In this document: in pieces, positions 1,138-23,685 of the stretch | Layout of the letters: each line of letters opens with the position of its first letter | How positions within the stretch are numbered: the first letter of the stretch is position 1 | Origin: Mycoplasmatales bacterium | GTDB taxonomy: Bacteria; Bacillota_I; Bacilli_A; CBDATW01 | Direction: 5' to 3' | DNA length: 24,000 nucleotides | Assembly (NCBI GenBank): GCA_965200605.1 | Contig: CBDATW010000002.1 | Location: forward strand, 280,458-304,457 | Notes under the pieces: generated by a model | What the model saw: only the letters and a program-made list of their open reading frames with translations | What the model was told of the DNA's origin: nothing | The model's database searches: none | Translations under genes and position numbers: made by a program

Positions 1138-1149
1138 ATCTATTCTCCT

Positions 1150-1736: not shown

Positions 1737-1748
1737 ATTATCTTCCTC

Positions 1749-2594
1749 CTATTTTTTCTTTCTTCTTCTAATAATTAATTTATCTGATGCTTTATGTTTT
1801 TTTCTTGTTTTAACACCAAGGGCTTTTTTACCTCATGGTGTCATTGGAGCTGCTTTTCCAATTGGTGCTTTACCTTCACCACCACCATGGGGATGATCAT
1901 TTGGATTCATAACTGAACCTCTAACTGTTGGTCTAATACCTTTATGCCTATTACGACCAGCCTTACCAATATTAACTAATGCTTGGTCTTCGTTTCCAAC
2001 TGTTCCAATTGTTGCTTTGCAGGTGGCAAGAATTTTTCGAACTTCACCTGATTGCAATCTTACAATTACATATCTTTCTGAATCATCAAATCCAAGTACT
2101 TGGGCTGATGCTCCAGCTGATCTTGCTAGTTGTCCACCTTTATTAGGCTTTAATTCGATATTGTGAATAACTGTACCTTCTGGAATATTTTTTAAGATAG
2201 TGGCATTTCCAACTTGGATATCAATTTTCTCAATTCCTGATATAACCTTTGTTCCTACTTTTAATCCTTTTGGAGCTAAAATATATCTTTTTTCTCCATC
2301 TGCATAATGTAATAAAGCGATATTAGCTGTTCGATTCGGGTCATATTGAATTGAATCAACTTTAGCTGGAATATTATCTTTATTTCGTTTAAAATCAATA
2401 AGACGATATTTACGCTTTGCTCCTCCACCTCTATGTCTAACTGTAATTGAACCAGAATTATTTCTTCCAGCATGCTTATTTAGTTTTTTTAAGAGTGATT
2501 TTTCTGGAGTCTTTTTTGTGATTTCTGCTTTATAGTCTAAAACTGACATATTACGTCTTGCGTTAGTAGTTGGTTTATACTTGATAATTGGCAT
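1749..2594 (-). CDS. rplB: 50S ribosomal protein L2
   Basis: The 253-aa track ORF (..[20 protein letters not shown]) continues through TGA 1835-1833 at the invariant TPWG Trp into [27 protein letters not shown]. Stop TAG 1751-1749. 281 aa. Confidence 0.96.
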
Positions 2595-2665
2595 ACTTTC
2601 TCTCCTTTTGTTATCGGCATAGATTAGATAGGTTTTCCTAATCTAGCCATAGTTTTTTTCTTTTG

Positions 2666-2986
2666 TTATTTTTTCTTTTTAGCTTTTGCTTTTTCTTCTT
2701 GGTTTGGATTCTCTCCAATGGTTTCTCCTGGCATCAACTTAACATAAGCCTTTCTAATTCCTGATATTTTACCTTGATATCTTCCTACTCTTTTTTTTCT
2801 AGGTTTTGTGTTAACAATGTTTACATCTTTAACATTTACTTTAAATAATTTTTTAATAGCTTCTTTAATCATTGTTTTTGAAGATTTAGGTGCAACTTCA
2901 AATGTATAAATGTTTTCTTTATTTTGAAGGGAATATGTTTTTTCACTAAGAACTGGTCTAATGATAATTTCTGAATATTGTTTCAT
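2666..2986 (-). CDS. rplW: 50S ribosomal protein L23
   Basis: 106-aa [59 protein letters not shown].. is L23-like. Its ATG overlaps the rplD stop (TAATG). Confidence 0.93.
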   Translation of the reverse strand: MKQYSEIIIRPVLSEKTYSLQNKENIYTFEVAPKSSKTMIKEAIKKLFKVNVKDVNIVNTKPRKKRVGRYQGKISGIRKAYVKLMPGETIGENPNQEEKAKAKKKK

Positions 2987-3582
2987 TATTTAAGTCCTCC
3001 TGTGATTTTATCAATTGCTTTAAGTGAAGCAACTAGGTAGTCATAATGTGTTAGATCAAGGATATTTATTTCACTTGCCCCGCAATGATCAGCATATCTT
3101 AAATTAGATAGAGATCTAAATGTATTGCTATTAAATTCTTCTGATACAATTAGAACTTTTTTATCTTCAATTCCAAGAGATTTTAGAAACTCTAACATAA
3201 GTTTTGTTGAAGGTTTGGGAAATTCAATTTTATCAACAATAATTATTTCTTCTGCTTTAGCTTTAATTGAAAGCACAGATTTTAATGCAAGTTTTCTAAC
3301 TTTTTTGTTAATAGCTTTTTTATAATTAACATTAGTTTGAGGCCCAAAGACAACTCCACCACCTACTCATTGAGGCGCTCTAATTGTTCCTTGACGAGAT
3401 CTACCAGTACCTTTTTGTCTCCAAGGTTTTTTACCACCACCAGCAACTGCTGATCTATTTTTAACAGCTGAAGTGCCTTGCCTTAATGAAGCTTGTTGAG
3501 CAACAATTGAATCAAATACTACTTGTTTATTAGGCTTGATTCCAAATACATCAGAATCAAGTTTAAATACTACTTTTTTCAT
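2986..3582 (-). CDS. rplD: 50S ribosomal protein L4
   Basis: Track fragments 3367-3582 and 2986-3276 are one frame joined through TGA 3369-3367. The joined sequence reads ..[51 protein letters not shown]... 198 aa. Confidence 0.94.
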
Positions 3583-3585
3583 CTC

Positions 3586-4527
3586 TTACTCCTTTGTCTC
3601 AACTTCAGGTTTTGCAGGCGATTGTTCTTCAACTTCTTTTTTTGAAGGTTTCTCTTTTGCTTCTGGTTTCTCTTTTGCTTCTGGTTTCTCTTTTGCTTCT
3701 GGTTTCTCTTTTGCTTCTGGTTTCTTTTTTACTTCTGTTTTTGTTTCTGCTTTTGGTTTTTCTTCTGCTTCTGGATTTTCTTTTGCTTCTGTTTTTGTTT
3801 CTGCTTTTGGTTTTTCTTTTGCAGAAACTTTTGAAATTTCATTAGCTTCTTTTTCTTCTTTAACTATTGTTTCATAATCAACAAGTTCAATAGTTTTGCT
3901 TGGCTCTAGACCTTTAATTGCTGATTTAACAACAACAAATGATTTGTTAGGTCCTGGTACTGATCCTTTAATTAGAATGTAACCTTCTTCATCATTAATA
4001 TCAACTACAACTAGGTTTTGAGTTGTTCTTTGAACATTCCCCATTTGCCCAGGCATAATTTTACCTTTTTGAATTTTATTTCCTTCAACATCTGACATTG
4101 ATCCAATTTGTCTATGAAATTGTGATCCATGTGACATTGGGCCCCTTTGAGCATTATGTCTTTTGATAACTCCAGCAAATCCTTTACCTTTTGAAGTTCC
4201 AGTAACATCTACTAATTGTCCAGATGCAAATAATTCACTTGGTTTAATTTCGGCTCCAAGTTCAAAACCAGTCATATTTCTGATTTCTTTTGTGAAGCGC
4301 TTAGGTGTGGACTTGGCTTTTTTGAAGTGTCCAGCTTTTGCTTTTATGATTTTGTTTTCTTTTCTATCACCATAAGATAATTGAATTGAGTTATAACCAT
4401 CAGTATCATGAGTTTTAACTTGTGTAACAATATTACCCTTAGTTTCAATCACTGATACTGGTATTAGTTCCCCATCTTTGTTAAAAACTTGGGTCATTCC
4501 AGCTTTTCTTCCTAAGATTCCTTTCAT
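3586..4527 (-). CDS. rplC: 50S ribosomal protein L3 with a repeat-rich C-terminal extension of about 100 aa
   Basis: 313-aa ORF. Residues 1 to about 212 (MKGILGRKAGMTQVF..KGKGFAGVIKRHN..GSVPGPNKSFVVVKSAIKG) are canonical L3. The remainder is KPKAETKTE and PEAKEK repeats. Confidence 0.95.
   Translation of the reverse strand: MKGILGRKAGMTQVFNKDGELIPVSVIETKGNIVTQVKTHDTDGYNSIQLSYGDRKENKIIKAKAGHFKKAKSTPKRFTKEIRNMTGFELGAEIKPSELFASGQLVDVTGTSKGKGFAGVIKRHNAQRGPMSHGSQFHRQIGSMSDVEGNKIQKGKIMPGQMGNVQRTTQNLVVVDINDEEGYILIKGSVPGPNKSFVVVKSAIKGLEPSKTIELVDYETIVKEEKEANEISKVSAKEKPKAETKTEAKENPEAEEKPKAETKTEVKKKPEAKEKPEAKEKPEAKEKPEAKEKPSKKEVEEQSPAKPEVETKE
3647..3736. repeat. In-frame 18-bp tandem repeat (4 perfect copies plus 1 degenerate) inside the rplC 3' region
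   Basis: ggtttctcttttgcttct occurs at 3647, 3665, 3683 and 3701 (perfect) and at 3719 (ggtttcttttttacttct). It encodes (PEAKEK)n on the minus strand. Confidence 0.95.
3737..3818. repeat. Second, 54-bp-period direct repeat inside the rplC 3' region
   Basis: gtttttgtttctgcttttggtttttctt occurs at 3737-3764 and again at 3791-3818. It encodes KPKAETKTE twice. Confidence 0.9.
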
Positions 4528-4550
4528 TTTCTTTCTCCTTGAATTTTAAT

Positions 4551-4856
4551 TTAAAGTTTAATTGAGATTTCAATTCCTGTTGATGCACTTATTCTTTGTA
4601 ATGAATCAATTACTTTATCAGAAGCCTTTTCTAATTGAATAAGCCTTCTGTGAGTTCTTTTTTCAAATGATTCTTGAGCATAACCATAAATATGTGTTGC
4701 TCTTTTGATTGTATAAGTAGCTTTGTGAGTAGGTAGCGGAATTGGCCCTGAGACTATTGCTCCTTCTTTTTTGGCGTTTTCTACAATTTTTTTTGCAGTT
4801 GAATCAAGTAAAGCTACATCATGGGCTCTTAATTTAATTTTAACTTTATCAGCCAT
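4551..4856 (-). CDS. rpsJ: 30S ribosomal protein S10
   Basis: 101-aa ORF MADKVKIKLRAHDVALLDSTAKKIVENAKKEGAIVSGPIPLPTHKATYTIKRATHIYGYAQESFEKRTHRRLIQL... It is the first gene of the S10 operon. Confidence 0.96.
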   Translation of the reverse strand: MADKVKIKLRAHDVALLDSTAKKIVENAKKEGAIVSGPIPLPTHKATYTIKRATHIYGYAQESFEKRTHRRLIQLEKASDKVIDSLQRISASTGIEISIKL

Positions 4857-4975
4857 TTTATTAGTTGTCCTTTCGTCTAATCTTTTAGATTGACTACCTC
4901 AATGTAAATTTCCCCTACAATTACAACTATTACAGGTGTATCGGCAACCTCACAAATCTTTGGTCAGTCTATAAG

Positions 4976-7716: not shown

Positions 7717-7737
7717 TAAATAATAAAAGGAGTGTAT

Positions 7738-9153
7738 ATGAAAAAACAATCATATTCATTTATAAACCTAGTTACTATTAACGTAGGTTCTATGATTGGT
7801 GTTGGAATATTCTTTAAGAACCCAGGGATCTTAAAAACTACTAACAACATCTACCTAGCTCTAGCTACCTGAGCAATTGGTGCTGTGCTGGTTTATGGGC
7901 TGTGTTTGTCTTTTGCTGAAGCGCAAAGCTACACAGGTAAAAACAATATATCAGGTACAGTTCCAAACTGAGTAAATCAGTTTTGTGGAAAAACAATGGG
8001 TCGAATCTCACAGCAAATTATGTCATGAGTTTACTACCCAGTATTTTCATCACTACTTGTATACTATGCAGTTTATTTTGCCTTTACAGGTCTAGGATGA
8101 AAGGGTGCAGACATTGAATCTAAATGAATCATAATCTATGGAGCTACTACATTAGCATACCTTGCTTTAACAATAGGTAATGTTATGTCATATAGCTTTG
8201 GTAAAGCATTGCAATTTGTTGGTACGGTAATTAAATTTATCCCTCTGCTTTTAGTTTGTGTTCTTGGATTTATAGCACCAGTTGCAAGTTCAGATGCAAA
8301 CACATTTGCAGGTATTGTTAATGGGAAAGCTCAGACATGAAACTTTGGGTCAATTTTCTTAGCAATTCCAGCTGTATTCTTTGCTTTTGATGGATTTATG
8401 GGTGGTTTGAACCTTTCTAAAGAAGAGGAAAAACCAAATGATGCTACAAAAGCTTCTCTCTTCTCAGTTGTGTCTGTTGCTATATTTTATCTAATATTTG
8501 CTGCAGCCGTTGGATTTGGTACAGATAATGGTTCTCTTTTCCCAGTGTTTGAAAAAACATTTGGAAAAAAAGGAGCAACTGCTATCTTTATGCTAATTGC
8601 TATTTCAGCTTATACTGTTGCTAACGGATTTACTGTAGCAGGAGCCAGAGCTCTAAAAGGAATGAATGATGAAAAAGGATTTATTCCATTCAAGTTAATT
8701 TCAAAAGTTGAATCTGATGGAAGACATGCAGGTCAAACTTGAGTGCTATTTGGAATGGGAATGTTCTATATGACATTATGTTTCCTAATTTCAGAAGCTT
8801 CAATTCAAAAAGCTGGACTTGTAGAATTTGATGCAATTAATGCAGCAAAACTTACAAAAGAAGCTACATTTGATAACTTTGGTACTGCAGGTGCCCAATT
8901 TGCCTTTGGACTATATGCCTTAGTTGCACTTGGAGTATTTGCCAATAGATTCTCAAATAGGCTACCGGTTATAAAACAAAAATGAATCGGCCTACAAGTA
9001 TCAGCAGCAGTTCTTGCTCTTTGAGTTGTTGTTATGAACATTATTGGTTACTTCTTGGCTAGTGCCAAAATCACAATGTGACTAGTTATCTTATCACTAT
9101 TTATTACATATGTTGCTAATAATGTTGTAAAATTATCACAAACAAGAAAATAA
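7738..9153 (+). CDS. APC-superfamily amino-acid permease
   Basis: ATG 7738 follows AAAAGGAG. One frame runs through track fragments 8398-8742 and 8743-8985, with 11 in-frame TGA. 471 aa, roughly 12 hydrophobic spans, N-terminal INVGSMIGVGIFF signature. Stop TAA 9151-9153. Confidence 0.85.
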
Positions 9154-9460: not shown

Positions 9461-10235
9461 TTTCAATAATGTTTATTCTTTCAATTGATTTGGCTTTGTT
9501 AGTATTATCATCAATTTCAATAATAACACCCATAAATTGATATCTACCTTCAGCAGGACTAAATTTTGCAGGAATATTTGTTTTTGTACGATAAATTACT
9601 GCTTCTGGCTTAGCTCCAATTACCGAATCTCTTGGACCTGTCATACCAGCATCTGTAAGAAAAGCAGTGCCCTTAGGTAAAATCCTTTCATCTGCTGTTT
9701 GAACATGAGTATGGGTGCCAACCAAAGCAGTAATTTTACCATCGTATTCAAGAGCAAAAGCAATTTTTTCAGCTGTTGCTTCAGCATGATAATCAACAAA
9801 ATGAATATCAGCTTTTTCTTTATCTAATAAAATAAAATCTAATGCAGCAAAAGGAGACTCTGGGATAGGTTGCATAAATGATTTTCCTAAAAGTGATGTA
9901 ACTCTAATTTTTTTGTTTTTTACTTTATAAATTCTTGAACCTAATTGCGAAGTATAAGGTGAATAGTTTTCAGGAACAAGTAAGTCTTTAACTTGATTTA
10001 CATATTTTTCAATTTTGTTTCCAAAAAATGAATGATTGCCACCTGTAAAAACATCAATTCCTAATTCTTTAAGTTCTAAATAATGACTTTGTTCAAGTGA
10101 TTTTCCATGTGAGACATTTTCTCCATTGGCAATTACAAAGTCAATATTGTGATTTTTAACAAGTGCTGAAAGTTCAGATTTGATTGCTCTTCTTCCAGAT
10201 TTACCTAAAATATCACCGATAAATAAAATTTTCAT
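9453..10235 (-). CDS. ymdB: YmdB-family metallophosphoesterase (2',3'-cyclic-nucleotide phosphodiesterase-like)
   Basis: 260-aa ORF MKILFIGDILGKSGRRAI..VIANGENVSHGKS..FTGGNHSF..DYHAEATAEK..VGTHTHVQTADERIL. It has the calcineurin-like metal motifs and lies immediately downstream of rny, as in Bacillus. Confidence 0.85.
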   Translation of the reverse strand: MKILFIGDILGKSGRRAIKSELSALVKNHNIDFVIANGENVSHGKSLEQSHYLELKELGIDVFTGGNHSFFGNKIEKYVNQVKDLLVPENYSPYTSQLGSRIYKVKNKKIRVTSLLGKSFMQPIPESPFAALDFILLDKEKADIHFVDYHAEATAEKIAFALEYDGKITALVGTHTHVQTADERILPKGTAFLTDAGMTGPRDSVIGAKPEAVIYRTKTNIPAKFSPAEGRYQFMGVIIEIDDNTNKAKSIERINIIENV

Positions 10236-10273
10236 ATTAATTTTCTCTTTCTATCTATTATTAAAATTATACA

Positions 10274-11401
10274 CTATTTTTCTTTAATAGCTTCAATGCT
10301 AAATCTATTTTCTTTAATTAAAACAATGTTAATTGAACCTGGAAATTTAACTTCTTTTTCAATATCAGCTTTAATTTTTAAAGCAATATCATTTAAATTC
10401 ATATTAGCTTTTGGCTTGATGATGACTCTAAGTTCTTTACCACCCCTAATCACATAAGAATCTTTAACCTCATTATGTCTTTTTGCTATTTTTTCAATTT
10501 TTTCAATTCTTACATATAATTTTTCTGTAACATTTTTTCTTGCTCCAGGTCTAGCTGCAGAAATTTTATCAGCAAAAGCTACAAGAGCTGCAATTAAGCT
10601 CTTTGCTGGTGTATCATTATGATGTGCTGCAATTGCATCTATCACCTCAAAGGGTAGGTTGTGTTTTTGAGCAAATTTTACTCCAAGATCAACATGTGAA
10701 CCACTTTTTTCAATATCAATTGCTTTACCAATATCATGCATTAAACCAGCAAGCATAGCTTTTTTTTGATCTAATTTAAACTCAATAGCTAAATTCGCCA
10801 TGATTTTTGCAGTTTCAATTGAATGAGATAAAACATTTTGTCCATATGAATGTCTTAAAAATAATTTTCCAACAGTTTTTGTCACCTCAATATTAATTTC
10901 TTTTAAATCAAGTGCTTGAAATGCCTCTTGTCCTTTTCTAAGTAAAATATCATCAGTTTTTAAAAGAGCATTATCAAATTGTGTTTCAATAGTTCTTGCA
11001 TTAATACTTTTAGCTTCAATTAATTGCTTAATTAATTCAACTGCAACTTCTCTTTTAATTGGATTAAAAGATGAGATTTGTATTTTATCTGTATTATTGT
11101 CAAATACAACATCACATTGTGTTAATTTTTCAATTAATTTTAAATTTCTACCTGATTTACCAATAATAGCTGATCTAATATCTTGATTTTTTAGTTTTAT
11201 AAGATTTGTGCTTGGATGCTTAAGAAAGCCAGAATAAGCCTTTTCAAGAGAATCTAGAATGATTGCTTTTGCTTTTTTTTCATCAAATGAAAAATCATTA
11301 ATTTCATAATTAATTTCTTTTTTATTATTTTGTTTTAAATATATTACATAGCCTATCAAAAATAAACAAAGTAAAATTAATAATATTGTTGGGTTGCGCA
11401 T
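10274..11401 (-). CDS. rny: Ribonuclease Y (short form)
   Basis: N-terminal TM segment (PTILLILLCLFLIGYVIYL), KH motif (IIGKSGRNLKLIEKLT) and HD domain (LSHSIETAKIMANLA..LAGLMHDIGKA..AAHH). The preferred start is ATG 11401, preceded by GGAGAAATAAT. The track start at 11428 has no SD. 375 aa. Confidence 0.88.
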   Translation of the reverse strand: MRNPTILLILLCLFLIGYVIYLKQNNKKEINYEINDFSFDEKKAKAIILDSLEKAYSGFLKHPSTNLIKLKNQDIRSAIIGKSGRNLKLIEKLTQCDVVFDNNTDKIQISSFNPIKREVAVELIKQLIEAKSINARTIETQFDNALLKTDDILLRKGQEAFQALDLKEINIEVTKTVGKLFLRHSYGQNVLSHSIETAKIMANLAIEFKLDQKKAMLAGLMHDIGKAIDIEKSGSHVDLGVKFAQKHNLPFEVIDAIAAHHNDTPAKSLIAALVAFADKISAARPGARKNVTEKLYVRIEKIEKIAKRHNEVKDSYVIRGGKELRVIIKPKANMNLNDIALKIKADIEKEVKFPGSINIVLIKENRFSIEAIKEK

Positions 11402-12566: not shown

Positions 12567-12926
12567 TTAATTTGTAATTTGTTTTTTAGCTGTTTGAACT
12601 AATTTGCTAAATGCTTCTGGATCATGAATCGCCATTTCTGATAACATTTTTCTATTTAGATCAATATTAGCTTTTTTTAATCCATTAATAAATTTTGAAT
12701 ATGAAATTTCATGATTTTTAGCTGCAGCTGAAATTCTTGTTATTCACAGTTTTCTAAAATGTCTTTTTCTAGTTTTTCTATCTCTATATGAATAAGCTAG
12801 AGAATTAAATAGCTGTTCTTGTGCTGTTTTATATAGTTTATGTTTTGCCCCAAAATATCCTTTGGCCTGTTTTAAAACTTTTTTTCTTCTTTTACGTGCT
12901 ACAACACCTGATTTTACTCTTGGCAT
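12567..12926 (-). CDS. rplT: 50S ribosomal protein L20
   Basis: The 60-aa track [49 protein letters not shown] continues through TGA 12746-12744 into [58 protein letters not shown]. Stop TAA 12569-12567. 119 aa. Confidence 0.94.
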
Positions 12927-12942
12927 AATACTCTACCTTCCC

Positions 12943-13137
12943 TTATACAATATTTTTAATTCTTTTATAATCACCTTTTGAAACCATTGTTGGTTTTGCA
13001 AGTTGACGTTTTTGCTTTGTTGTTTTTCCATAAGCTAAATGAGACATAAATGCTTTTTTACGCTTTAGCTTGCCACTAGCTGTTTTTTTAATACGTTTGC
13101 TAAGTGCAGATTTTGTTTTTATTTTAACTTTTGCCAT
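12943..13137 (-). CDS. rpmI: 50S ribosomal protein L35
   Basis: 64-aa basic ORF MAKVKIKTKSALSKRIKKTASGKLKRKKAFMSHL.. located between infC and rplT. Confidence 0.92.
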   Translation of the reverse strand: MAKVKIKTKSALSKRIKKTASGKLKRKKAFMSHLAYGKTTKQKRQLAKPTMVSKGDYKRIKNIV

Positions 13138-13142
13138 AATAG

Positions 13143-13763
13143 CTATTCTCCTATTTTCTTTTTATTTATTTCTTGAGAGTTTTCAATTGTTTTAGTATTT
13201 TTTATACTATCTTGAGATTTTTTCTTTTTCTCTGGGGCAACAATCATATCAAAGAATCTTCCATTTGAATATGGTTGCTTTTCAAGTTTTGAGATATCAC
13301 TAACTACTTCATAAAATTTCATAAGAGTTTCTCTACCAACATCAGTGTGGGCCCTTTCTCTTCCTCTAAATTTTAGAGATACTTTCACTTTTGAACCTTG
13401 TTTTAGAAACTTTCTTGCATTTTTAGCCTTTGTTTCTAAATCATGCTGTCCAATATTTGGGGTGATTCTAACTTCTTTTAAACTAATAATAGTACGGTTT
13501 TTCTTTGCTTCTTTTTCTTTTTTAGATTTTTGAAATTTATATTTTCCATAATCTAAAATTTTACAAATGGGCGGTTTTGCATTGGGTGATATACAAACTA
13601 AATCAAGTCCTAGTGCCTCAGCTTTTTTAATCCCTTCTTGTGGCGACATTTGCCCAAGAGGTCCTTTTTCTCCAATTACCATTACCATTGGAAACCTAAT
13701 ATCTCTATTTATCAGATCAGTTTTTTTTGGTAGTTTTCTACTATATCGATTAAATCTTGCCAA
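13143..13763 (-). CDS. infC: Translation initiation factor IF-3 (TTG start)
   Basis: ..DLINRDIRFPMVMVIGEKGPLGQMSPQEGIKKAEALGLDLVCISPNAKPPICKILDYGKYKF..SLKEVRITPNIGQHDLETKAKNARKFLKQGSKVKVSLKFRGRE... The only start-like codon between the upstream in-frame TAA and the conserved N-domain is TTG 13763-13761, 6 nt after AAGGAG. Confidence 0.9.
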   Translation of the reverse strand: MARFNRYSRKLPKKTDLINRDIRFPMVMVIGEKGPLGQMSPQEGIKKAEALGLDLVCISPNAKPPICKILDYGKYKFQKSKKEKEAKKNRTIISLKEVRITPNIGQHDLETKAKNARKFLKQGSKVKVSLKFRGRERAHTDVGRETLMKFYEVVSDISKLEKQPYSNGRFFDMIVAPEKKKKSQDSIKNTKTIENSQEINKKKIGE

Positions 13764-13949: not shown

Positions 13950-15125
13950 CTACTTGTCTTTCAATATAGAATTGCCATTGTAAAATTTATCTAAATTAAA
14001 ATAATCATTTATTGTAGCTGCAATATCAGATAATGTTTCCCTTGTGGCTATTTCCTTTGGTTCAATACTTTTTGAATACATTATCAATGGTGTATATTCA
14101 CGTGTATGTTGATTTGTACCATTTGTAGGATCATTACCATGATCTGCTGTTATTAATAAAATATCTTTATCATTTAAATTGTTAATAATAGTTTTAATTT
14201 TATAATCAACTATTTTTAGCTTTTGATAAAATAATTTTTTATCTTGACTATGGCCAGCAAGATCAGTTTCTTGAATTGTTGCAGCAATTAAACCATCTTT
14301 TTGCTCTGACATTCTTTGAATAATGCTATTCATAACTAGATTTGTTTTAACTGCTTGTTTTCTTCAAATATTATCACCAAGAATAATATCCTGAATTTTG
14401 CCAATTAGTGATACATCAATATTATTTTTAATTAGTTTGTTTTGAATTTGCTTTGATGCATCAATTCCATAACCCATATGTAGACATTGATAATTTTCAT
14501 CATATATTCCAGAATCAGAGGTGATTAATCCAACTCTTTTATCAGGTAGTTCTTTAATTGAATTTTGAATTTTTTCAATACTTGATTTTGTACCTCCAAG
14601 GGCAATAACTCTTGAATTACCTACTGTTGATCTAACTAGATTAGCAATTTTAAGAATTTTTTTAAATGATGTTTCCAAAGTTGATGCAGAAACATTTATG
14701 ATTTGACCATAATCTGCTTCTAAATTATCTGCAATCACAATTTTATCTTCAACAATAAAATATTTATCAAATTTATATTCAACATTATTATTATCTAATA
14801 TTTTTTTTATTTTATCTTTATTGTCATTTAAAATAGAAAGTTTTGGTTTGATTGGTTTTGAACCCATTATTTCCTGATGACCAAAATATGTATCAGCTCC
14901 ATAATGTTGTAATTTAAACTTACCATTAGAAGCAAAATTATTTTTAAATTTATCATTGGCAATATTAAATAATCCCAATTTATTTAAATTAGGAAATGCA
15001 TCAGGATTTTTTACAACTGAGTTTACTGTATTATAGCCAATATCTTGAGGACGAACATCTTTACAGTCATCCATTGCTCCAACTCCCAGACCATCTAAAA
15101 TTAATAATATAAATCTTTTATTCAT
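13950..15125 (-). CDS. YhfW-like phosphopentomutase-family metalloenzyme (alkaline-phosphatase superfamily)
   Basis: Track fragments 14364-15161 and 13950-14333 are one frame joined through TGA 14366-14364. The preferred ATG 15125 (MNKRFILLILDGLGVGAMDDC..) overlaps the upstream stop (ATGAATAA). Family motifs LDGLGVG, ..GHQEIMG.., ..ITADHGNDPT... 391 aa. Confidence 0.8.
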
Positions 15126-16272
15126 GTATTTTTTCTCCAAGAGAGGTAAATATACCCTCAATTTTTGGTTTTCCTTTTTGAATTCCAGAAACTACTGCTA
15201 CTTTTGATCTGGTAATAAAAATTTGTGTTCTAAATGAGGCAATAACCATATCGCCTACTTTTGGTCTGGATTTGTTAATTTTAAAACCCAAATAATAATC
15301 AATTGCCTCTGGAGCAATTGGTAATGTTTTTTGGATTTTTTTCTTTTTACCTGAAACTAATAGTACATGTTTCATATTAGATCTTCGATAGTGTCCTCCA
15401 CCAAAGAAATAGGCTCTATCTTCATAGACATGTGATATTTCAGAAACATATAACATAGCTGGTATCTCTTCTAAATTCTTAGCTGCATGGGCTGGTGTTG
15501 TTCCAGTTAAAGCATGGCCAGGTTCACCATGTGTTCCTTGGTGTTTTTTAATCAACTTCATTGTCTTAGTGCAATTTACACTTGGAATATTTATGTGAGG
15601 AAACTCAAAACCTAAATCTTTACCAATTTTAATTGCTTTTTTTACTGTTTGAAGATTTTGAGTTGGTTTAATACTTTTACCTTTATATAAGAAACATGGA
15701 AAAGAAGTAGGTCCAACCACATTGATTCCTTTTAATTTTGTTATTTTCTTTAAAAAACTTGAAAAATCTTTTAATTTAACTCCCCCCTCTTGGCCTGGGT
15801 AAATATCATCATCTTTTCCAACTACTTTAATTAAAATATCTTGTACTAAATTATTTTTAGAAGCGATTTTAGAAATTTGTTTTGCCTTATGTTCTGTAAA
15901 AATAGTTAAAACATCTGGCTTATATTTAATTATTGGTTCAAGAAAGCATTTTGGAGTTTGAACTAAGTGTCCAACATTTCCAAGCGGAATCTTATTTTTA
16001 ATCATTACCATTGCTCCCCATGGATCAACTGCAACTACTTTTGGAATGCCTGATTTTCCTATTGCTTTAGCTACCAAAGGGTTTCGGCCAAATTGTTTGG
16101 TCATTTGATACAATTCAATATTATGCTTTTTAGCTTCTTTTGCCATAATTGAAGCATTTTTTTTAACTGTATCTAGATCGATGATATATGTGTTGGGCTC
16201 TAGTCTAGAATAGAGATTGATGGCTACATTAATTAACTTTGGATTTCTTTTTTGTAATTTTTTTATAAACAT
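15118..16272 (-). CDS. YhfX-like fold-type III PLP enzyme (alanine-racemase N-terminal domain family)
   Basis: Intact 384-aa ORF. TIM-barrel-like N-domain with the candidate PLP-lysine context ELYQMTKQFGRNP, ..VVAVDPWGA.., ..GTHGEPGHALTG... Its length and neighbours match E. coli YhfX (about 387 aa). Confidence 0.7.
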   Translation of the reverse strand: MFIKKLQKRNPKLINVAINLYSRLEPNTYIIDLDTVKKNASIMAKEAKKHNIELYQMTKQFGRNPLVAKAIGKSGIPKVVAVDPWGAMVMIKNKIPLGNVGHLVQTPKCFLEPIIKYKPDVLTIFTEHKAKQISKIASKNNLVQDILIKVVGKDDDIYPGQEGGVKLKDFSSFLKKITKLKGINVVGPTSFPCFLYKGKSIKPTQNLQTVKKAIKIGKDLGFEFPHINIPSVNCTKTMKLIKKHQGTHGEPGHALTGTTPAHAAKNLEEIPAMLYVSEISHVYEDRAYFFGGGHYRRSNMKHVLLVSGKKKKIQKTLPIAPEAIDYYLGFKINKSRPKVGDMVIASFRTQIFITRSKVAVVSGIQKGKPKIEGIFTSLGEKIHE

Positions 16273-16275
16273 AAT

Positions 16276-17187
16276 TTAGTAATTTATAAGATTTGGGTCT
16301 TTTTTTATCCTTTCTATAGCTTCTAGTAGTTTATCTTCTGATATGATGTTTTTAAAGATATTTTTAATAATTTGGTTGTTTTTGTTGATAACCAAAGTTG
16401 CAACAGTTGAATCTATAAGTAGTTGTTTGTTACTGGTAAATGATTTAATAGGTACAACATATTTTATATTATTGATAGCATCATCAATGTTATAAATAAC
16501 TGCATCAATTTTTTTATTTTGTATATCTTCAATTAATGTGTGATATTTTTTATTAACTAATTTAACTTTTTTATTTCCAATAATTTCTTTTGTAAGTACA
16601 GCAATGTCAATTGAGTTTTCATCAATACCTACTATCATTCCGTCTTCTATTTTCTTAAATTTTGCTTTAGAAAAAATAATAGCATGTGAGCTAGTATATG
16701 ACTCCACTCCTAATTCAACTGGTATATTTAAATTAGAATATTTTTTAACAATTTTTTTTGCAGCAATTTTTGACATAATGCCAATATCAGATAATTGGTC
16801 TTCTAATAATTCTGCTCTTTTTAAACTACCTGGTTTATACAAAAGTTCAAATGGTATTTTATTTTGCTTAAATATGTATTCTAAAGCTGATGAAATTATT
16901 TTTAAATTCATTGTCAAAGGAATAGGAGAAACACAAAGTATTATTTTTTCTTTAGAAAGTTCAAATAATTTTGAATAATCAATAAAATCAATATATGAAC
17001 CATCTTTGGTTTTATTTTTAATTTTAATTGCTTTATTTTTTATAAGAAAATTTAGTGCAAAATAAACAGTCCCTCTTGAAAAGGTATAGTTATTATAAAA
17101 TTGTGAATTGTTAACTTTTGAATTCTTTTTATATAGAAAAAATTTGCGTGCTAACATTTTTATACATTGCTGTCTTTTGCTTTCCAT
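16276..17187 (-). CDS. YhfZ-like putative regulator (N-terminal winged-helix plus periplasmic-binding-protein-like domain)
   Basis: Intact 303-aa ORF. HTH-like FSRGTVYFALNFLIKNKAI near the N-terminus and an alternating beta-alpha C-terminal part. Its size matches E. coli YhfZ (about 301 aa). No obvious SD at ATG 17187. Confidence 0.6.
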   Translation of the reverse strand: MESKRQQCIKMLARKFFLYKKNSKVNNSQFYNNYTFSRGTVYFALNFLIKNKAIKIKNKTKDGSYIDFIDYSKLFELSKEKIILCVSPIPLTMNLKIISSALEYIFKQNKIPFELLYKPGSLKRAELLEDQLSDIGIMSKIAAKKIVKKYSNLNIPVELGVESYTSSHAIIFSKAKFKKIEDGMIVGIDENSIDIAVLTKEIIGNKKVKLVNKKYHTLIEDIQNKKIDAVIYNIDDAINNIKYVVPIKSFTSNKQLLIDSTVATLVINKNNQIIKNIFKNIISEDKLLEAIERIKKDPNLINY

Positions 17188-17220
17188 ACTATTATTTTAA
17201 TAAATAATTGGTGTTTTGAG

Positions 17221-18123
17221 TTAAAAATCTAATATTTTTGCAAGATTCTTTGAAGAAATTTTTTCTCATGCTTCTTTTGAAATTTGGTTTTTAAGCTTTG
17301 GATAAAATTTTTCTACAATATATCCATAACCTGTTCCACCATATTTTTTTAGATAAACTAGTCTTGAAATATCTTGTGCTAATAGGATTTGGTTTTCATA
17401 TCCTAACTTAATTAATTCAATAACTCATTGTGCTCTAAGGTCACAACTTTGAATACGATTTTTGCCAATAGTGTCAAAGGCAATTGTGAGTCCTGAATCA
17501 AGTATTTTAATTAATGTTTTAATATCTTTTACTAAATCCATATGACCAATAACGGTTTTTTTAACGTCACAACCTGCCTCTAATAGAATATCAACATGTT
17601 CCATTGTGTTATTATCATGATCTACATGTGTGAAAACCGGACACCCTGTTTCTTTTTGTGCCTCTACTGCTGCTAATAACACTTTTTTTTCTGAGGGAAA
17701 TATTTGTTTAGAACTAGTTGCCAGTTCTCCTATGGCTCCAGCTTTAATGTTGGTGTTATTAATTCCCTTGGTAATTTCTTCTATGAATTCTTTTTTTATT
17801 TCTTCAACTGTTAATTTTTTAAAGTCTTCTGTATGATATTCATGTAGGTAGTATCCAGTGGATGCTACTATTTCTATACCAATTTTTTCAGAAAGTTTTT
17901 TTAAATGTTCTGGATCTCTATGCATGCTTTGATTTGAGCAATCAACAAGAATATTGTATCCTTGTTCTTTGAAGATTTTTAATTCTTGAGATTGAAGCTC
18001 AATATCTTGTAAAATTGAATCTTCATCTTTTCTAACATGTCTTAAATCCATAGAAAGATGTTCATGCGATGATCCTAGTTTTACATCTTTGGGATCCATT
18101 AGACCTCTTACAGTTCTAATCAT
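17221..18123 (-). CDS. php: Phosphotriesterase-homology protein (Php, amidohydrolase superfamily)
   Basis: The track ORF (232 aa) continues through TGA 17427-17425 and 17268-17266 to stop TAA 17223-17221. 300 aa. Binuclear-metal ligand positions are present: SSHEHL (HxH), AIGELATS (bridging Glu as in E. coli Php), VFTHVDH, VIGHMDL, LLAQDISR. Confidence 0.88.
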
Positions 18124-19556
18124 TATAGACTTGTAGCTATTTTATATAAGACGTTTAGAATAACGCCGACAGTTAAAGCACCAATTGGTCCAATAGCAAG
18201 ATCAGAAATTTTTCTTTTTGTTTGTTGGTTAATGATAAACATTCCAATTACAAGTCCAGCTGACATTGATGGAAGTCATGTAGCTAATCCGCCAAATGGT
18301 ATCGAAACTTTAGCAATTAATCCTGCAACTGTTTTACCCATTGAAAAGGCAGCAATTGTACCACCAAATAAGAATGCTGCTTTTACAGTCCTAATAATTC
18401 CTTCTCTAAGTGAATCTGATAGTTTTTGAATTCCAGGCACTTTGAATAATACTTTTGCAATAACTTGCAGAAATTGAATTTCTAGAAACATTGAAATTGC
18501 ACCCATCACAAAAGCAATTGGAATTGCTGTTAGATATGAACTAGTATTTCCTGATGATTGTACTAATTGAAAACCAATAAGTTTAGCAATTGTTCCAAAC
18601 ATCAAAACTGCAGTAAGTCCAATTGGTGAATATACACCAGTTAGTAATGATGTTAGTACAACTAATGGAATAAATCCAATTACTCATGATAAATCAGCAA
18701 TTGCTGCAGCATATAATTTATGAGTTGTGTGTAGTCCCAATGATACAAGTGGGGCAATGGCAAATGAAGCTACTGCAGCTGCAGCAATACCACCTGATAT
18801 CATTAATCATAATCTATATTTCTTGATTTGTTCAGCACCTTCTTTAAAAGTGTTAAGTTTGGAATCAAGATTACTATTTGAAACTTTTGGCTCACTTGAT
18901 TTTGTTAATGCAAAAAATGCAATAATACCAACAAGCATTGTTAAAGCCATTGGGTACATTTTATGTTGATTTCACCCAAACATTGCAACTAATATATATG
19001 TAATTATTGACAGTACTAGAACTGGTGTTCCCTTTTTAGCCCCTGAGTGAGCATAAGCTGCTACTGCTGGGAATAATGAAAATACAAATGGAAATGCTCC
19101 ATCTCCGATTAATCCAAGTTCTCATCCAAATCCTGGATAAGAAATCTTACCAATAAAGGCTCCTAATGCATCTAGCCCATAAAATAGCGCCAAACCATAG
19201 ATTGCAGCTAATATAGTTGCTACTCCTGTTTTTCATTTTTGATCATGGTCAAATGATAAACCAATAATTTCTGCACCTAATAGTACAGCATGTACAATAA
19301 GAATTTTTGTAGCAATTGAAAATGGAATAAATCCTACAACATACCCAATTGACATTGAGAATGACATTGCAGCCAATGCTTTAAATGATAAATTTCCTTG
19401 TTTTCTTTGCCCCACAAGTGGTCTAACACCATCATTATAAACAGCAATGTTTTTGTTAGCTAAAAATGCTGTTAATGCTGAAAGTGCAGTAATTAGAAAC
19501 ATACCAATAGTTTTCAATTGTGGTAACAGTGAAATTTGTGTTAATTGTTCAGTCAT
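18123..19556 (-). CDS. YhfT-like polytopic membrane protein (candidate transporter)
   Basis: One frame links track fragments 19233-19556 and 18276-18605. I translated every codon between them and found only TGA (7 in-frame), no TAA or TAG. 477 aa, at least 10 hydrophobic spans. Stop TAA 18125-18123 overlaps the php ATG (ATAATG). Confidence 0.75.
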
Positions 19557-19571
19557 TTTAATTTTTCCTTT

Positions 19572-19922
19572 TTATTTTAAATGTTTTAGCAAGTGTGTGA
19601 TGCAGTATTCATAGTCTGCTGCAACAAATCCAAATGCTATATATCCAGATTTAATTAAATCCTTTATTTCTTCTTCACTTTTTTTAGAAGATTGGGTAGC
19701 AATTGTAACTGTTTTTTTTGCTCCTAAAAAGCTTGTTGCCATAGCAAGAGCTCCACCTCCCCCGGTATCACATGCTCCAACATAATAATCAGCTTGTCCG
19801 CTTTCGATTGCCATTGCAGCATCTAAATCAGACATAATTTCTACTTCAATTTTAGGGTTTATGTTTTGTATTTTAGCAGCAATTTCTTTTTTAACTAATT
19901 GCCCTCCTACTACTATTTTCAT
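19572..19922 (-). CDS. YhfU-like DUF2620 protein
   Basis: 116-aa ORF MKIVVGGQLVKKEI..ESGQADYYVGACDTGGGGALAMATSFLGAKK... The DYY[IV]GAC.TG.G.AL core and the length match E. coli YhfU (117 aa) as I recall it. AGGAGG SD. Confidence 0.7.
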   Translation of the reverse strand: MKIVVGGQLVKKEIAAKIQNINPKIEVEIMSDLDAAMAIESGQADYYVGACDTGGGGALAMATSFLGAKKTVTIATQSSKKSEEEIKDLIKSGYIAFGFVAADYEYCITHLLKHLK

Positions 19923-19931
19923 AAAAGCCTC

Positions 19932-20267
19932 CTATCTTCTTCGAAGGATTAATGCTAAAATATGCAACATTAAATATTGCTTTTCATTTTTTGAAATTTC
20001 AACAGGTGGATTAAAAAATAATCAATCAAATATTTCTTTTCCTTCTTCTAAATTAGGATTTTTGTCTATTGATTTTTGAGTTATATCATTAACTGGATCA
20101 ATTACTTCACCTTTAAATAATCGCTCAATAGCAATAGCTAAGTGAGTTGTTAATTCATCATTTTTGGTGTAGCCTTTTGATTCAAGTTTGTTTATTATTT
20201 CTTCTACATAATTAAATGTTTTTTGTGAAATAACACCTTTTTCTAACATTATTGAAAACTTTTTCAT
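19932..20267 (-). CDS. YhfY-like PRD-domain-only protein
   Basis: The 81-aa track ORF continues through TGA 20024-20022 into LFFNPPVEISKNEKQYLMLHILALILRRR, with stop TAG 19934-19932. 111 aa. It has two PRD-like His helices (LTTHLAIAIERL and YLMLHILALI). Confidence 0.65.
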
Positions 20268-20293
20268 TTATCCTTCTATTTTCAATATAACAT

Positions 20294-20317
20294 ATTATTC
20301 CATTTTTTTGGAATAAT
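20294..20317. promoter_or_regulatory. Perfect 9+9 inverted repeat (candidate operator) abutting the -10 of the yhf-like operon
   Basis: ATTATTCCA-tttttt-TGGAATAAT. On the minus strand it sits directly upstream of the extended -10 TGTTATATT (20292-20284), covering the -35 region. Confidence 0.5.
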
Positions 20318-20328
20318 TATTTAAAAAA

Positions 20329-20346
20329 CTATTATTTTAATAATAG
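20329..20346. promoter_or_regulatory. Second perfect inverted repeat (8+8, 2-nt spacer) in the divergent control region
   Basis: CTATTATT-tt-AATAATAG lies about 25 nt upstream of the extended -10 TGATAAAAT (20369-20377) of the cyclodeaminase gene. Confidence 0.45.
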
Positions 20347-20402
20347 AAGGCTTATATTTTAATAGTTATGATAAAATATTATTCACATTAAGGAGAATAA
20401 TA

Positions 20403-22007
20403 ATGCAAAAAATATTAGATGTAAATGCAATTAAACTTTTAGTTGCAAAATATGGTTTAAAAAATATCATTAAATCAACAATGGAACGTATTGAATATGA
20501 TTTTTCAAGATGAAAAGAATTTGATATTATTCCTCGACCTGCTTTTCATGTTCCAGGGGGAGTTATTGAATTAATGCCCTCTGCTGATAAAGAATATTTT
20601 ACATACAAATATGTTAATGGACATCCAATAAATCCAAAGCAAAATAAATTAACAGTAGCTGCAACTGGACAAATGTCTAAAACAAAAGATGGCTATCCAA
20701 TCTTTATTACTGAAATGACTATTTTAACTGCAATTAGAACAGCAGCAGTAGCTGCCCTTGCTGCAAAATATATGGCTAAAGAAGATTCTAAATCTATGGC
20801 TATTATTGGTACAGGTGCTCAATCTGAATTCCAATTAGAAGCACATTTATTAATTAGAAATTTAAAAGAAATTCATTATTTTGATACAGATCAAAAAGCT
20901 ATGGATAAGTTTGAAAGAAATGTTATTAAAAAATATCCAGATGTAAAATTTAAAAGATTTGATTCAGTGCCAGATGCTATTAAAGGAGTTGATATTGTAA
21001 CTGTCTGTACAGCTACAAAAGCTCAAATGCAAGTTATTAAAACTCAATGAATAGAACCAGGAATGCACTTAAATGGTTTAGGGGGAGATTGTCCTGGCAA
21101 GACTGAATTTGAAAAAGAAATTTTGCAACTTGATAATTCAAGAGTGGTTGTAGAATTTTTTGAACAATCATTTATTGAAGGTGAAATCCAAAATTTTGAT
21201 AAAAAAATAGCACAAGAAATAGTCTATGCTCAAATGTCAGAAATTTGTGATAAATCAAAAAAAGGTAGAGATGATGATAATCAAATTACAGTTTTTGATT
21301 CAGTGGGAATTGGTCTTGAAGATTTTTCAATGCTTTATGTTATTAAAGAATTAATTAAAAATGAGGTGATTGGTGATCAAAGAGTTATGACTCCAATACT
21401 TGATGATGTAAAAGATTTATTTGGACTTCTAGAATCAAATATTAATGTAGGCAAAATTGAAGAATTTGATACACGAGGAATTAAACCACTAGTTATTGGT
21501 GATACCATTTATGATATTTGTGCAAAAAAACAGCAATTTAAAGCAATTACTAAAGATTCATGTATGTGTACAGTGGGCGTATGATCTGGAGCTCAAAAAT
21601 ATTATGGAGCAATAGGATTAATTCATATTGGAGATGTAATTAATTCATCTATAGGTTCTCTTCTTGGAGAATCAGATAGAGAGGAACGTCTTCTTTATGG
21701 ACATCTTGGTAAAATTAATGGTCCAAACTATGTTGTTGCTGGAATTGAATTTGATCAAATTAAAAATGAGCAAAAATGAATTGATCGCCTTGATGTTTTA
21801 AACAGACATGGGGTTACTATTCATTTTAAAAGCCAGGTTGATAAATTGAGTTATAAAGAAATTATTAATCAAACTATTAAACAATTTGAAGCTAAAGGTT
21901 TGATGTGGGGAATAATTCTAACCAATGAAACTATTGATTTAATTAAACCTTACTTAAAAAATAAAAACTTTATTGGTTATGAAATAAACACAAAAGAAAG
22001 TATTTAA
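20403..22007 (+). CDS. Ornithine cyclodeaminase fused to a C-terminal domain of unknown family (about 190 aa)
   Basis: ATG 20403 follows AAGGAGAATAAT. One frame runs through track fragments 20574-21050 and 21063-21584 and on to TAA 22005-22007, with 4 in-frame TGA. 534 aa. OCD hallmarks: VIELMPSADKEYFTYKYVNGHP, LTAIRTAAVAAL, IIGTGAQSEFQ, EPGMHLNGLGGDCPGKTEF, IEGEIQ, ITVFDSVGIGLEDF, DDVKDLFG. Confidence 0.88.
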
Positions 22008-22008
22008 T

Positions 22009-22047
22009 ATATAGAATTTATTTTTCAATTATGTTTCTATATTTTTC
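22009..22047 (+). terminator. Weak candidate terminator between convergent genes
   Basis: ATATAGAA (22009-22016) pairs with TTCTATAT (22035-22042) and is followed by TTTT. The loop is long (18 nt) and the stem is almost all A/T. Confidence 0.25.
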
Positions 22048-22054
22048 TCATTAA

Positions 22055-22321
22055 TTATTCTTTATTTTGCAATTTTAACTCTTTCTTTTCCCTTTTTATA
22101 ATATCAATTTTACGATTAGCAATTTTATCACATGGATTGCATTTTTTGTGATTATTTTCAATATTAATTATATTTTTCATCTTATCAAATAAATGTGGTT
22201 GAGAACGAGATTTTACTCCCAAAAAATGTTTACACCCAAATAAAATATGATAACAATAGCGAGTAGTATATTTACTAATCTTATATTCCTTTTTATATTC
22301 ATCATTTCATAATTCAAGCAT
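22055..22321 (-). CDS. Hypothetical Cys/His-rich protein, or the 3' part of an interrupted gene
   Basis: Same frame as 22367-22870, downstream of an in-frame TAA. From ATG 22321: MLELWNDEYKKEYKISKYTTRYCYHILFGCKHFLGVKSRSQPHLFDKMKNIINIENNHKKCNPCDKIANRKIDIIKREKKELKLQNKE. 88 aa, stop TAA 22057-22055. Confidence 0.4.
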
Positions 22322-22366
22322 TTCTGTTAAAAAATTGTTCAAATTTAATAATTGGACAATAATATA

Positions 22367-22870
22367 ATTAATAAATTCCTCTGAAGAAGACCGATATTCA
22401 TTTGCACTAACCATTGAGATTGATGTTTGGTCATCTTTATCCATAATATATAAATTTTTATTGTAAGCTCAAGTGCTATCAAAAACTTCTTCTGTATGAA
22501 TAAAATAATTTAGTATGTTTTCTGGATTTTTAGATTTATTTCCAGATAAAAGAAAAAGTAGATCTGAAGCTTGTTGAATTATGTCGCTTAATTTAGAAGT
22601 GGTTAAATTAAAATTTGATTTTTGTAGAAAAGTCATAATGTCTTGTCAAGATATATTGTCTTTTTTATTTACTTTAATTTCATGTATTTTAATTATATTA
22701 ATTATTATGTTTTTAAAATATTCTAATTTTTTTCTTATATTAATAGCAAAGGCTTCAATATTACTATTACCTATTTTTTTTAAATTATTAATTTGGTTAT
22801 CTAATCTTTGAATATGATTAGGATTAATAAAATTGATATTTCTTGATTTTAAAAAATTATTTCTTTTCAT
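22367..22870 (-). CDS. Hypothetical protein, or the 5' part of an interrupted gene
   Basis: The track ORF (74 aa) continues through TGA 22648-22646 and 22471-22469 to TAA 22369-22367. 167 aa: MKRNNFLKSRNINFINPNHIQRLDNQINNLKK..FIHTEEVFDSTWAYNKNLYIMDKDDQTSISMVSANEYRSSSGGIY. No family recognised. Confidence 0.5.
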
Positions 22871-23145
22871 ATTAAAATTATACTATATAATTCCTTTTTT
22901 TGATTAAGTCTACATTTATTATGAATATAAATTTTAGAATTTAGTTTTATGTGAACTGAAATGTTTAATTTACCTCTTTGTTATGAATTTAATTTAAATA
23001 CTTTTAGTCACTATTTTTTTTTGTTGGGTTTTTAGTAGTATAAATAACAATTCTATATTTTGAAGTGTAGAATTTATTTTGCCAATGTAAATTTTTGAAT
23101 TTATTTTTTTAATTTAGCAACACATTTGCGGACTAAACAGTACTT

Positions 23146-23685
23146 TCTAAAAAATGGTCTTGCAACTATTTGTGGAATCAAAAGAGTTATAGTAGCTGAA
23201 AATCCCCGATATATTTTAACTGGCTGTCCTTGTATTCAAGATGAATAGACTTGTGAGTTTTCTTGTCAGTAAAACAATGTAAAATATGTTATTGCAAGCA
23301 AAATAAGATTTCACATATATTTAGTTGGGTCTTGTGTTATAGAAGCTATAAAAAGTAATATTAAGTATATAAACAAAGGAACTCCAGCACTTTTTGCAGC
23401 ACCCCAACCATAAATTGTATTGCTTAACAATATTGTTAATGGAATTAATAAAACTAATGGTAAAATAACTCATATTTCCTTTATTGAAATAGTTTTATAA
23501 AAAACTGATAATGGGATAAGTAAAAATATAATTGATGATCCTAAAGCTTGAGCAAAAATTAAAAAATATCAACGAAAAGCATTTGTTTTAAAAATGTCTT
23601 TACCTAAAAATAATATTAAACTAGTTATAATTAATACTGATACAGATGTTATGTAAATAAATTTAAATTCTTTTTTTGTAATCAC
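23146..23685 (-). CDS. Hypothetical polytopic membrane protein (GTG start)
   Basis: AAGGAG, 6 nt, then GTG 23685-23683. Hand-translated codon by codon with 6 in-frame TGA: (M)ITKKEFKFIYITSVSVLIITSLILFLGKD..FRWYFLIFAQALGSSIIFLLIPL..IYGWGAAKSAGVPLFIYLILLFIAS..ATITLLIPQIVAKTIF. 179 aa, 5-6 hydrophobic spans, stop TAG 23148-23146. Confidence 0.6.

Follow-up and report, generated by a model that had tools for sequence, protein, structure and literature searches.

In the rocF-ocd operons, the arginase and ornithine cyclodeaminase (OCD) families are linked on the route from arginine through ornithine to proline. The gene rocF lies immediately upstream of ocd in Azospirillum, and the two genes share an operon on an Agrobacterium tumor-inducing (Ti) plasmid; they are separate genes, and the upstream one encodes an active arginase of about 300-324 amino acids (aa). 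The Ti-plasmid OCD was reported as arginine-regulated (Sans et al. 1988, cited in PMC3840593), and a route from arginine deiminase through OCD to proline is known in Clostridium sticklandii (PMC3091704). Here, we describe a gene of a Mycoplasmatales bacterium, located at 20403-22007 (+) of a 24,000-nucleotide stretch of contig CBDATW010000002.1 (positions 280,458 to 304,457; this whole stretch is hereafter called the window), in which an OCD and a predicted, truncated arginase-fold module form one polypeptide. In contrast to the rocF-ocd operons, the OCD comes first, the arginase part looks degenerate and the ornithine apparently comes from ArcA and ArcB. By analogy, the fusion can be regarded as the Rosetta-stone counterpart of the two-gene rocF-ocd arrangement.

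Another precedent is the ornithine decarboxylase (ODC)/arginase fusion of Fusobacteriaceae (PDB 8d27), which likewise joins an ornithine-consuming enzyme covalently to an arginase-fold domain. In oral Fusobacteria, an inactive arginase domain fused to ODC is described in PMC11271267 (Mothersole et al. 2022 cited therein); the domain has diverged and become inactive in some species. Its partner is a pyridoxal phosphate (PLP)-dependent ODC, whereas that of the window is an NAD-dependent OCD. Its arginase domain, of ~287 aa, is complete and preserves the ligand framework as a whole, whereas the window module has ~190 aa, is C-terminal and carries a Cys instead of the first His ligand. Metal-free pseudoenzymes of the arginase family are also known, namely MetCb of metformin hydrolase, which works as a binding partner of the active enzyme, and an arginase-like protein of Trypanosoma brucei (both PMC11271267; for the latter, Hai et al. 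2015). These proteins resemble the window module in that the metal ligands of their arginase fold are substituted, and they are not expected to be active as ureohydrolases. They are, however, full-length stand-alone subunits paired with or derived from another ureohydrolase, whereas the module is shortened and forms one chain with an unrelated enzyme of the Rossmann type.

A fused ornithine cyclodeaminase gene read under genetic code 4

The features of the fusion gene, in window positions, are the following.

20403..22007 (+): complete fusion gene, 534 codons plus TAA, a single open reading frame (ORF) under genetic code 4
20369..20395 (+): probable expression signals, an extended -10 element TGATAAAAT (20369-20377) and a Shine-Dalgarno (SD) sequence AAGGAG (20390-20395)
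20403..21425 (+): OCD domain, aa 1-341, assigned by Pfam PF02423, NCBIfam NF005762, the PDB 1u7h match and invariant columns
21426..22004 (+): C-terminal module, aa 342-534, predicted truncated arginase/ureohydrolase fold without metal ligands, 7 strands, alpha/beta
21561..21563 (+): codon of the invariant Cys387, at the position of the first Mn ligand of arginase (His of GGDHS)
21630..21647 (+): loop aa 410-415 (GDVINS), in place of the arginase DAHxDxN metal-binding motif
21903..21923 (+): strand aa 501-507 (MWGIILT; WGISAT in relatives), at the arginase SxDxD strand, both Asp ligands gone

The frame contains in-frame TGA codons at residues 37 (20511), 216 (21048), 394 (21582) and 459 (21777). 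ORF calling with translation table 11 splits the gene at TGA, and the frame is open solely under table 4. That TGA encodes Trp here was demonstrated rather than assumed, because TGA and TGG exchange among homologous fusion genes at the aligned positions 216, 394 and 502, and because Trp37 (TGA) aligns with a Trp of the Pseudomonas putida OCD. In the long ORFs of the window, in-frame TGA codons outnumber TGG codons 27 to 5. The first-pass annotation had read an OCD at this locus as continuing in frame for about 190 further residues, without a second start. Its interval, 21438-22007, corresponds to codons 346-534 plus the stop, and the peptides that it quoted, NINVGKIEEFDTRGIKPLVIGD and CMCTVGVWSGAQKYYGAIGLIHIGD among them, were found in the translation. 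The observation proved genuine: neither ATG nor SD sequence interrupts the frame at the junction, and the two other frames are stop-rich across 21300-22010. The single code-4 ORF, together with the same architecture in relatives (see below), bears out the in-frame fusion. Upstream, TGATAAAAT at 20369-20377 is likely the promoter of the fusion gene.

The first 341 residues are predicted to be a bona fide, catalytically intact OCD, as the earlier assignment to the true OCD subfamily had it. Pfam PF02423 matches aa 15-319 (E=1.3e-82), and the NCBIfam OCD equivalog NF005762 is matched over model positions 2-334 of 334 with 397.1 bits, above its cutoff of 350. In a phmmer search of the PDB, aa 4-342 matched the P. 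putida OCD (1u7h) at E=1e-76. This enzyme (1u7h/1x7d) aligns end to end with aa 1-341, and its Arg45, Glu56, Lys69, Arg112 and Asp228 and its GxGxxS NAD motif are all aligned as identities. The corresponding R45, E56, K69, R112, D229 and GTGAQS (136-141) of the window protein are invariant in its family. We take the five P. putida residues to be the substrate-binding and catalytic residues of that enzyme (Goodman et al. 2004). The similarity stops at DDVKDLFG (aa 334-341), the counterpart of P. putida DDPKDLFS at residue 336 of 350; the P. putida protein finishes 14 residues past this motif, whereas the window protein runs 193 residues further.

A full-length profile search revealed the fusion architecture in six further protein clusters (P0005-P0009 and P0002) of 528-534 aa. 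Among the 120 best OCD homologs, 114 have 315-371 aa and the remaining six are these fusions. The fusion is carried by five independent contigs (L002-L006), and some of the assemblies have more than 400x coverage. In a GTDB scan, a 530-aa fusion was found in a Mycoplasmatales metagenome-assembled genome (MAG), OZ244030.1 (L002), and in a Metamycoplasmataceae MAG (L003). The family thus comprises seven protein clusters, all from MAGs of uncultured, Mycoplasmatales-type organisms, and the database entries of the fusion proteins carry no protein name. P0002 diverges most, its identity being 47% over the whole protein and 38% within the module; its 4.2-kb contig has TGA=Trp and 36% GC. The closest non-fused OCD relatives (54-56% identity) belong to Thiotrichales and other host-associated bacteria, which fits the earlier remark that an OCD is unusual for a mollicute.

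When the module alone was used as query against a database of 5.8 billion proteins, the sole find was a 109-aa fragment, P0001; the full-length fusions surfaced there with the whole protein as query only. HMMER with the N-terminal half of the module returned P0001, P0002 and two repeat proteins, P0003 and P0004, which were rejected as spurious relatives matching a short VWSGAKKY-like repeat. P0003 (580 aa) consists of seven tandem repeats of ~65 aa, each with VWSGAKKYRE(E/A)LGW, and its likeness to the GVWSGAQKYYGxIGL helix of the module is probably a chance motif similarity. Two metagenome scans gave no further members, the first pattern of the second scan having ended in Trp, which is usually TGA here.

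Fold, metal site and conservation of the C-terminal module

No Pfam or NCBIfam family matches the module; the best value for Pfam Arginase PF00491 among four members was E=0.22. The first-pass annotation had been unable to place the domain in any family, which holds for these family models, and it had proposed an AlphaFold check. AlphaFold2, run on the P0007 module (96% identical to that of the window) with a 7-row alignment, gave a confident seven-stranded alpha/beta domain, with a predicted local distance difference test (pLDDT) score of 91.4 and a predicted template modeling (pTM) score of 0.89. The half-domain P0001, run with a 3-row alignment, was unusable (pLDDT 41). Foldseek searches of the PDB with the P0007 model yielded 82 matches at E<=1e-3, and the top 50 were exclusively members of the arginase family: arginases of Bacillus, Thermus, Leishmania, Schistosoma and human, as well as formiminoglutamase, agmatinase, guanidinopropionase, guanidinase and metformin hydrolase. 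The top match was 1cev_A (E=1.8e-7, ~15% identity), with TM scores of 0.67-0.70 normalised to the query; normalised to the target, they were 0.45-0.50.

Sequence profiles led to the same family. With a 4-sequence module profile, the arginase hints were early and weak (PDB 6nbk, E=0.69; Pfam Arginase, E=0.22). A 7-sequence hidden Markov model (HMM) of the module matched Bacillus arginases, that of B. subtilis with E=3.6e-4 (module positions 9-157) and that of B. cereus with E=1e-3, and reached E=0.01 for both 8d27 and 1cev, so that the Fusobacteriaceae fusion appears among both the structural and the sequence matches. In hhalign comparisons with eight arginase-family sequences taken from plasmid records, the global alignment placed module residues 1-193 on arginase residues 52-276 of 300 (87.7% probability, E=3.8e-7), and the local alignment gave 89.6% probability and E=1.9e-6. 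The controls, an OCD family and a reversed sequence, did not exceed 0.4% probability (E>=0.16). Because Foldseek, HMM and hhalign agree, the module is considered, on alignment and predicted structure, a homologue of arginases of about two thirds their size; to this extent, the domain that had seemed unplaceable can be placed. It is not a complete arginase, since it has 193 aa and 7 strands versus ~300 aa and an 8-stranded sheet, and it is without ~50 N-terminal residues, ~25 C-terminal residues and two internal loops. To our knowledge, this module of ~190 aa is the shortest arginase-fold module.

Other candidates for the module were discarded. PDB 5uc0 (COG5400/DUF992) worsened from E=0.03 to 0.87 with the better profile, and the fold result gave no support to proline racemase, GATase/DJ-1-type Cys enzymes, a PrdA-type pyruvoyl proenzyme, carbamate kinase or YhfS.

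Arginases coordinate their two Mn ions by six ligands, His101, Asp124, His126, Asp128, Asp232 and Asp234 in the rat enzyme, within the motifs GGDHS, DAHxD and SxDxD. By both HMMER and hhalign, the module segment FPLVLGGDHSIAIGTL aligns without gaps with arginase FKAITKDSCMCTVGVW, which puts Cys387 on the first Mn ligand; this Cys is invariant in all members, including P0002. The DAHxD motif, which holds three ligands, is replaced by I409-[G/S/D/A/N]-x-x-I-N414, without His and without a conserved acidic residue, and Asn414 and Ser415 are invariant. The counterpart of SxDxD is WGI[SI][AL]T, or a gap in the hhalign alignment; from the model and the alignments, aa 501-507 would be the residue equivalents of this strand. 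Judged from these comparisons, the binuclear Mn site is missing from every member and the module would not be an arginase. Arginase-family descent together with loss of the metal-coordinating residues is what defines arginase-fold pseudoenzymes, and both were found here. The extra domain therefore does match a well-known fold, which goes part of the way towards the refutation that the first-pass annotation had named, yet with the metal ligands gone its role is not plainly that of arginase. Depending on the alignment, N414, E456 and E527 may fall on or near arginase Asn130, Glu186 and Glu277, the residues that bind the amino-acid and guanidinium moieties of the substrate.

The module is maintained by purifying selection as strong as that on the OCD part. 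A comparison of the window with L006 (96.5% nucleotide identity), in which the module shows 14 synonymous and 9 non-synonymous changes, yielded a ratio of non-synonymous to synonymous rates (dN/dS) of 0.16 in the module and 0.20 in the OCD part. Some 50 positions of the module do not vary among the members, even at 38% identity.

Genomic context of the fusion genes

On L004, a metagenomic contig (code 4, 36% GC) that carries the most distant family member, arcA (arginine deiminase), arcB (ornithine carbamoyltransferase) and the OCD fusion follow one another on the same strand (162-4143). The arcA and arcB genes overlap by 11 nucleotides, and the contig stops 95 nucleotides past the fusion gene; arcC or arcD could come next beyond its end. 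This arrangement, with the fusion directly behind arcA and arcB, upholds the earlier suggestion of a link between ornithine and the arginine deiminase pathway. The window itself contains an APC-superfamily amino-acid permease (473 aa, AA_permease_2) at 7732-9153 (+), conserved in L006, which could be relevant to arginine/ornithine exchange; its NCBIfam match is a distant one only (L-type amino acid transporter, 37 bits).

In the window, the fusion gene is divergent from a seven-gene cluster, 13950-20267 (-), that corresponds by homology to the functionally uncharacterised yhf/php cluster of E. coli and is composed as follows.

19932-20267 (-): PRD protein, yhfY-like
19572-19922 (-): DUF2620 protein, yhfU
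18123-19556 (-): YhfT permease
17221-18123 (-): phosphotriesterase-homology protein (php)
16276-17187 (-): YhfZ helix-turn-helix (HTH) regulator
15118-16272 (-): YhfX PLP racemase-fold protein
13950-15161 (-): phosphopentomutase-like metalloenzyme, yhfW (NF009049, 438 bits)

A yhfS homologue is absent from this cluster. In their longest versions, the yhfX-like and yhfW-like ORFs share 44 nucleotides (15118-15161); the true start of the latter is probably 15125, where its family match begins at Met13 (MNKRF...), so that the overlap would be short.

The yhf-like operon and the fusion are independent of each other. In L006, whose fusion protein is 96% identical, a deletion of ~6.1 kb has removed nearly all of the operon (window ~14207-20336) and left the fusion intact: at L006 9515-10000, the last ~240 nucleotides of the yhfW-like gene are joined straight to the 66 nucleotides upstream of the fusion gene, within which the putative -10 and SD sequences fall. 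Because of this deletion, the operon is regarded as dispensable and as being lost in the L006 lineage. The fusions of L002, L003, L005 and L004 occur without nearby yhf genes, those of L002, L003 and L005 among housekeeping genes, and L001 has kept the yhf operon and lost the OCD part. A perfect 9-nucleotide inverted repeat, ATTATTCCA-N6-TGGAATAAT, is found in the divergent intergenic region (window 20294-20317; L001 9876-9899). L001 shares this repeat, whereas L006, L002, L003 and L005 lack it; since it accompanies the yhf-like operon, we regard it as a candidate operator that might be bound, for instance, by the YhfZ HTH protein.

L001 carries at 10001-10590 a stand-alone arginase-fold module, with its own ATG behind AGGAGG and without the OCD part. 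This module has two single-base insertions (+1 frameshifts) beside A-runs. In the rest of the 19.7-kb locus the called genes have normal length, and ~16 kb of neighbours are intact. The L001 module is probably a decaying deletion derivative, on a contig of only 2.2x coverage, and its decay is consistent with the module being useless without OCD.

The remaining gene layout of the window is typical of a small mollicute chromosome, with a GC content of 20-35%. It includes the S10 ribosomal-protein operon, rpsJ to rplP (1-4955, -), and rplT and infC (12567-13763, -), with recA, an RNase Y-like KH/HD protein and YmdB between them. Two ORFs downstream of the fusion gene have no family match: that at 22055-22870 (-), of 271 aa, is absent at the same position in L006, whereas that at 23101-23685 (-), hydrophobic and of 194 aa, recurs in L006 and L001, downstream of the fusion or of the module.

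Proposed role and significance

Taken together, these features suggest an active OCD with an arginase-derived pseudoenzyme domain that serves in cis for ligand binding, regulation and/or assembly; the enzyme would remove ornithine delivered by ArcA and ArcB. We give this reading a probability of roughly 60%. The N-terminal 341 residues would form an NAD-dependent OCD with the predicted activity of converting L-ornithine to L-proline and NH3. The C-terminal 193 residues would descend from a rocF-type ureohydrolase, the arginase that supplies OCD with ornithine in the classical rocF-ocd pathway, and the protein may derive from a once-active arginase-OCD fusion. Of the arginase fold, about two thirds would remain, and because the binuclear Mn centre appears lost, metallo-ureohydrolase activity would no longer be possible. 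Kept under purifying selection, the pseudoenzyme module would act in cis on the OCD, most likely as a site where an amino acid of the arginine or ornithine type binds, either to capture substrate or to control the enzyme allosterically, and it may also drive oligomer assembly. In these arginine-fermenting mollicutes, the ornithine would come from the arginine deiminase pathway (ArcA, ArcB) and not from arginase; its conversion to proline would remove the product of the unfavourable catabolic ornithine carbamoyltransferase step and release extra NH3.

Several points weigh against this proposal. The arcA-arcB context is seen in one contig only, the other fusions lying among housekeeping genes, and the equivalences of N414, E456 and E527 rest on alignments of ~15% identity, with offsets of a few residues between HMMER and hhalign. 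A re-invented active site would also be in keeping with the invariant Cys on a former metal ligand and with numerous invariant polar residues (D425, R426, K437, H474 and E527). Finally, the L001 frameshifts are possibly sequencing errors, given the 2.2x coverage, and the module might then function alone.

The module could thus still be an enzyme, with a new metal-independent or differently metallated site around Cys387 that makes ornithine by hydrolysis of a guanidino or ureido compound (arginine or citrulline) and possibly channels it. This is suggested by Cys387, which takes the place of the former His ligand and, unlike the neighbouring Cys389, is preserved in P0002 despite a module identity of 38%, by the dense invariant polar residues (e.g. 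E527, D425/R426 and H474), by the strong purifying selection, and by a fusion partner that consumes ornithine and whose L004 gene lies behind arcA-arcB. Yet the module has lost the arginase loops with substrate-binding and catalytic residues (the S137/H141 loop and the one that follows SxDxD), it is short of ~100 residues of the fold, L004 already has ArcA and ArcB for ornithine production, and we know of no Cys-dependent hydrolase in the arginase fold. An enzymatic module is therefore held to be distinctly unlikely, and its specific form, in which Cys387 would be the nucleophile of a metal-independent hydrolase turning arginine or citrulline into ornithine and handing it to the fused OCD, is still more doubtful. 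If true, it would be a single-polypeptide arginine/citrulline-to-proline machine with a mechanism never seen in the arginase fold. A purely architectural module, that is, a trimerising or hexamerising remnant that gathers OCD dimers into a larger particle or stabilises the protein without binding a small molecule, is unlikely too, though it deserves more weight than an enzyme: arginases are trimers or hexamers, the fold is compact and confidently predicted, and MetCb shows that metal-free arginase-family proteins can be protein binders only (PMC11271267). Against it, the invariant residues include positions aligned with the amino-acid-binding residues of arginase, and they cluster at the C-terminal ends of the strands, the active-site face, which would be unexpected for a mere interface.

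The first-pass annotation had also envisaged that the fusion acts with the adjacent YhfX-like enzyme and the yhf operon on ornithine, proline or one of their derivatives. Such coupling is favoured by the divergent arrangement of the two neighbours in the window (13950-20267, - versus 20403, +) and in L001, and by a YhfX with an alanine-racemase-type N-terminal domain and faint similarity to ornithine racemase (Orr). However, YhfX reaches 32 bits against the Orr model, whose cutoff is 480; the closely related L006 dropped the operon and retained the fusion, four contigs carry the fusion without yhf genes, L001 retains the operon without OCD, and the spacer palindrome goes with the operon and not with the fusion. 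This suggestion did not survive the comparison, and coupling is considered very improbable. As for an artefact, by which separate genes, a frameshift or a mis-assembly would be read as one, the break at TGA in table-11 calling is all that speaks for it. It is already refuted by the proof of TGA=Trp (TGA/TGG interchange and the P. putida Trp37 alignment), by the 528-534-aa architecture in six other clusters of independent and partly very deeply covered assemblies, and by the module dN/dS of 0.16.

With the cis-acting pseudoenzyme domain as the preferred reading, each component is of a known kind: there are other OCDs, other arginase folds, pseudoenzymes of the arginase family and fusions of arginase with ornithine enzymes. 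The combination of OCD with an arginase fold, the truncation to ~190 aa and the His-to-Cys replacement appear to be undescribed, since there is no family model, no database name and no literature match for the fusion. Literature searches returned nothing relevant on an OCD-arginase fusion, on OCD in mycoplasmas or on what the yhfT/W/X cluster does. The finding is of limited practical importance, as the family is very rare and MAG-only and its function is inferred. Annotation based on Pfam or NCBIfam would at most name these proteins "ornithine cyclodeaminase", which a family model would fix. What had been an orphan domain resolves into a new domain architecture and a new predicted arginase-family pseudoenzyme with a Cys at the former metal site. 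The finding suggests that some uncultured mycoplasmas may extend the arginine deiminase pathway by one step, from ornithine to proline and NH3, and such an extended pathway would affect models of arginine fermentation, ammonia output and proline supply in these organisms.

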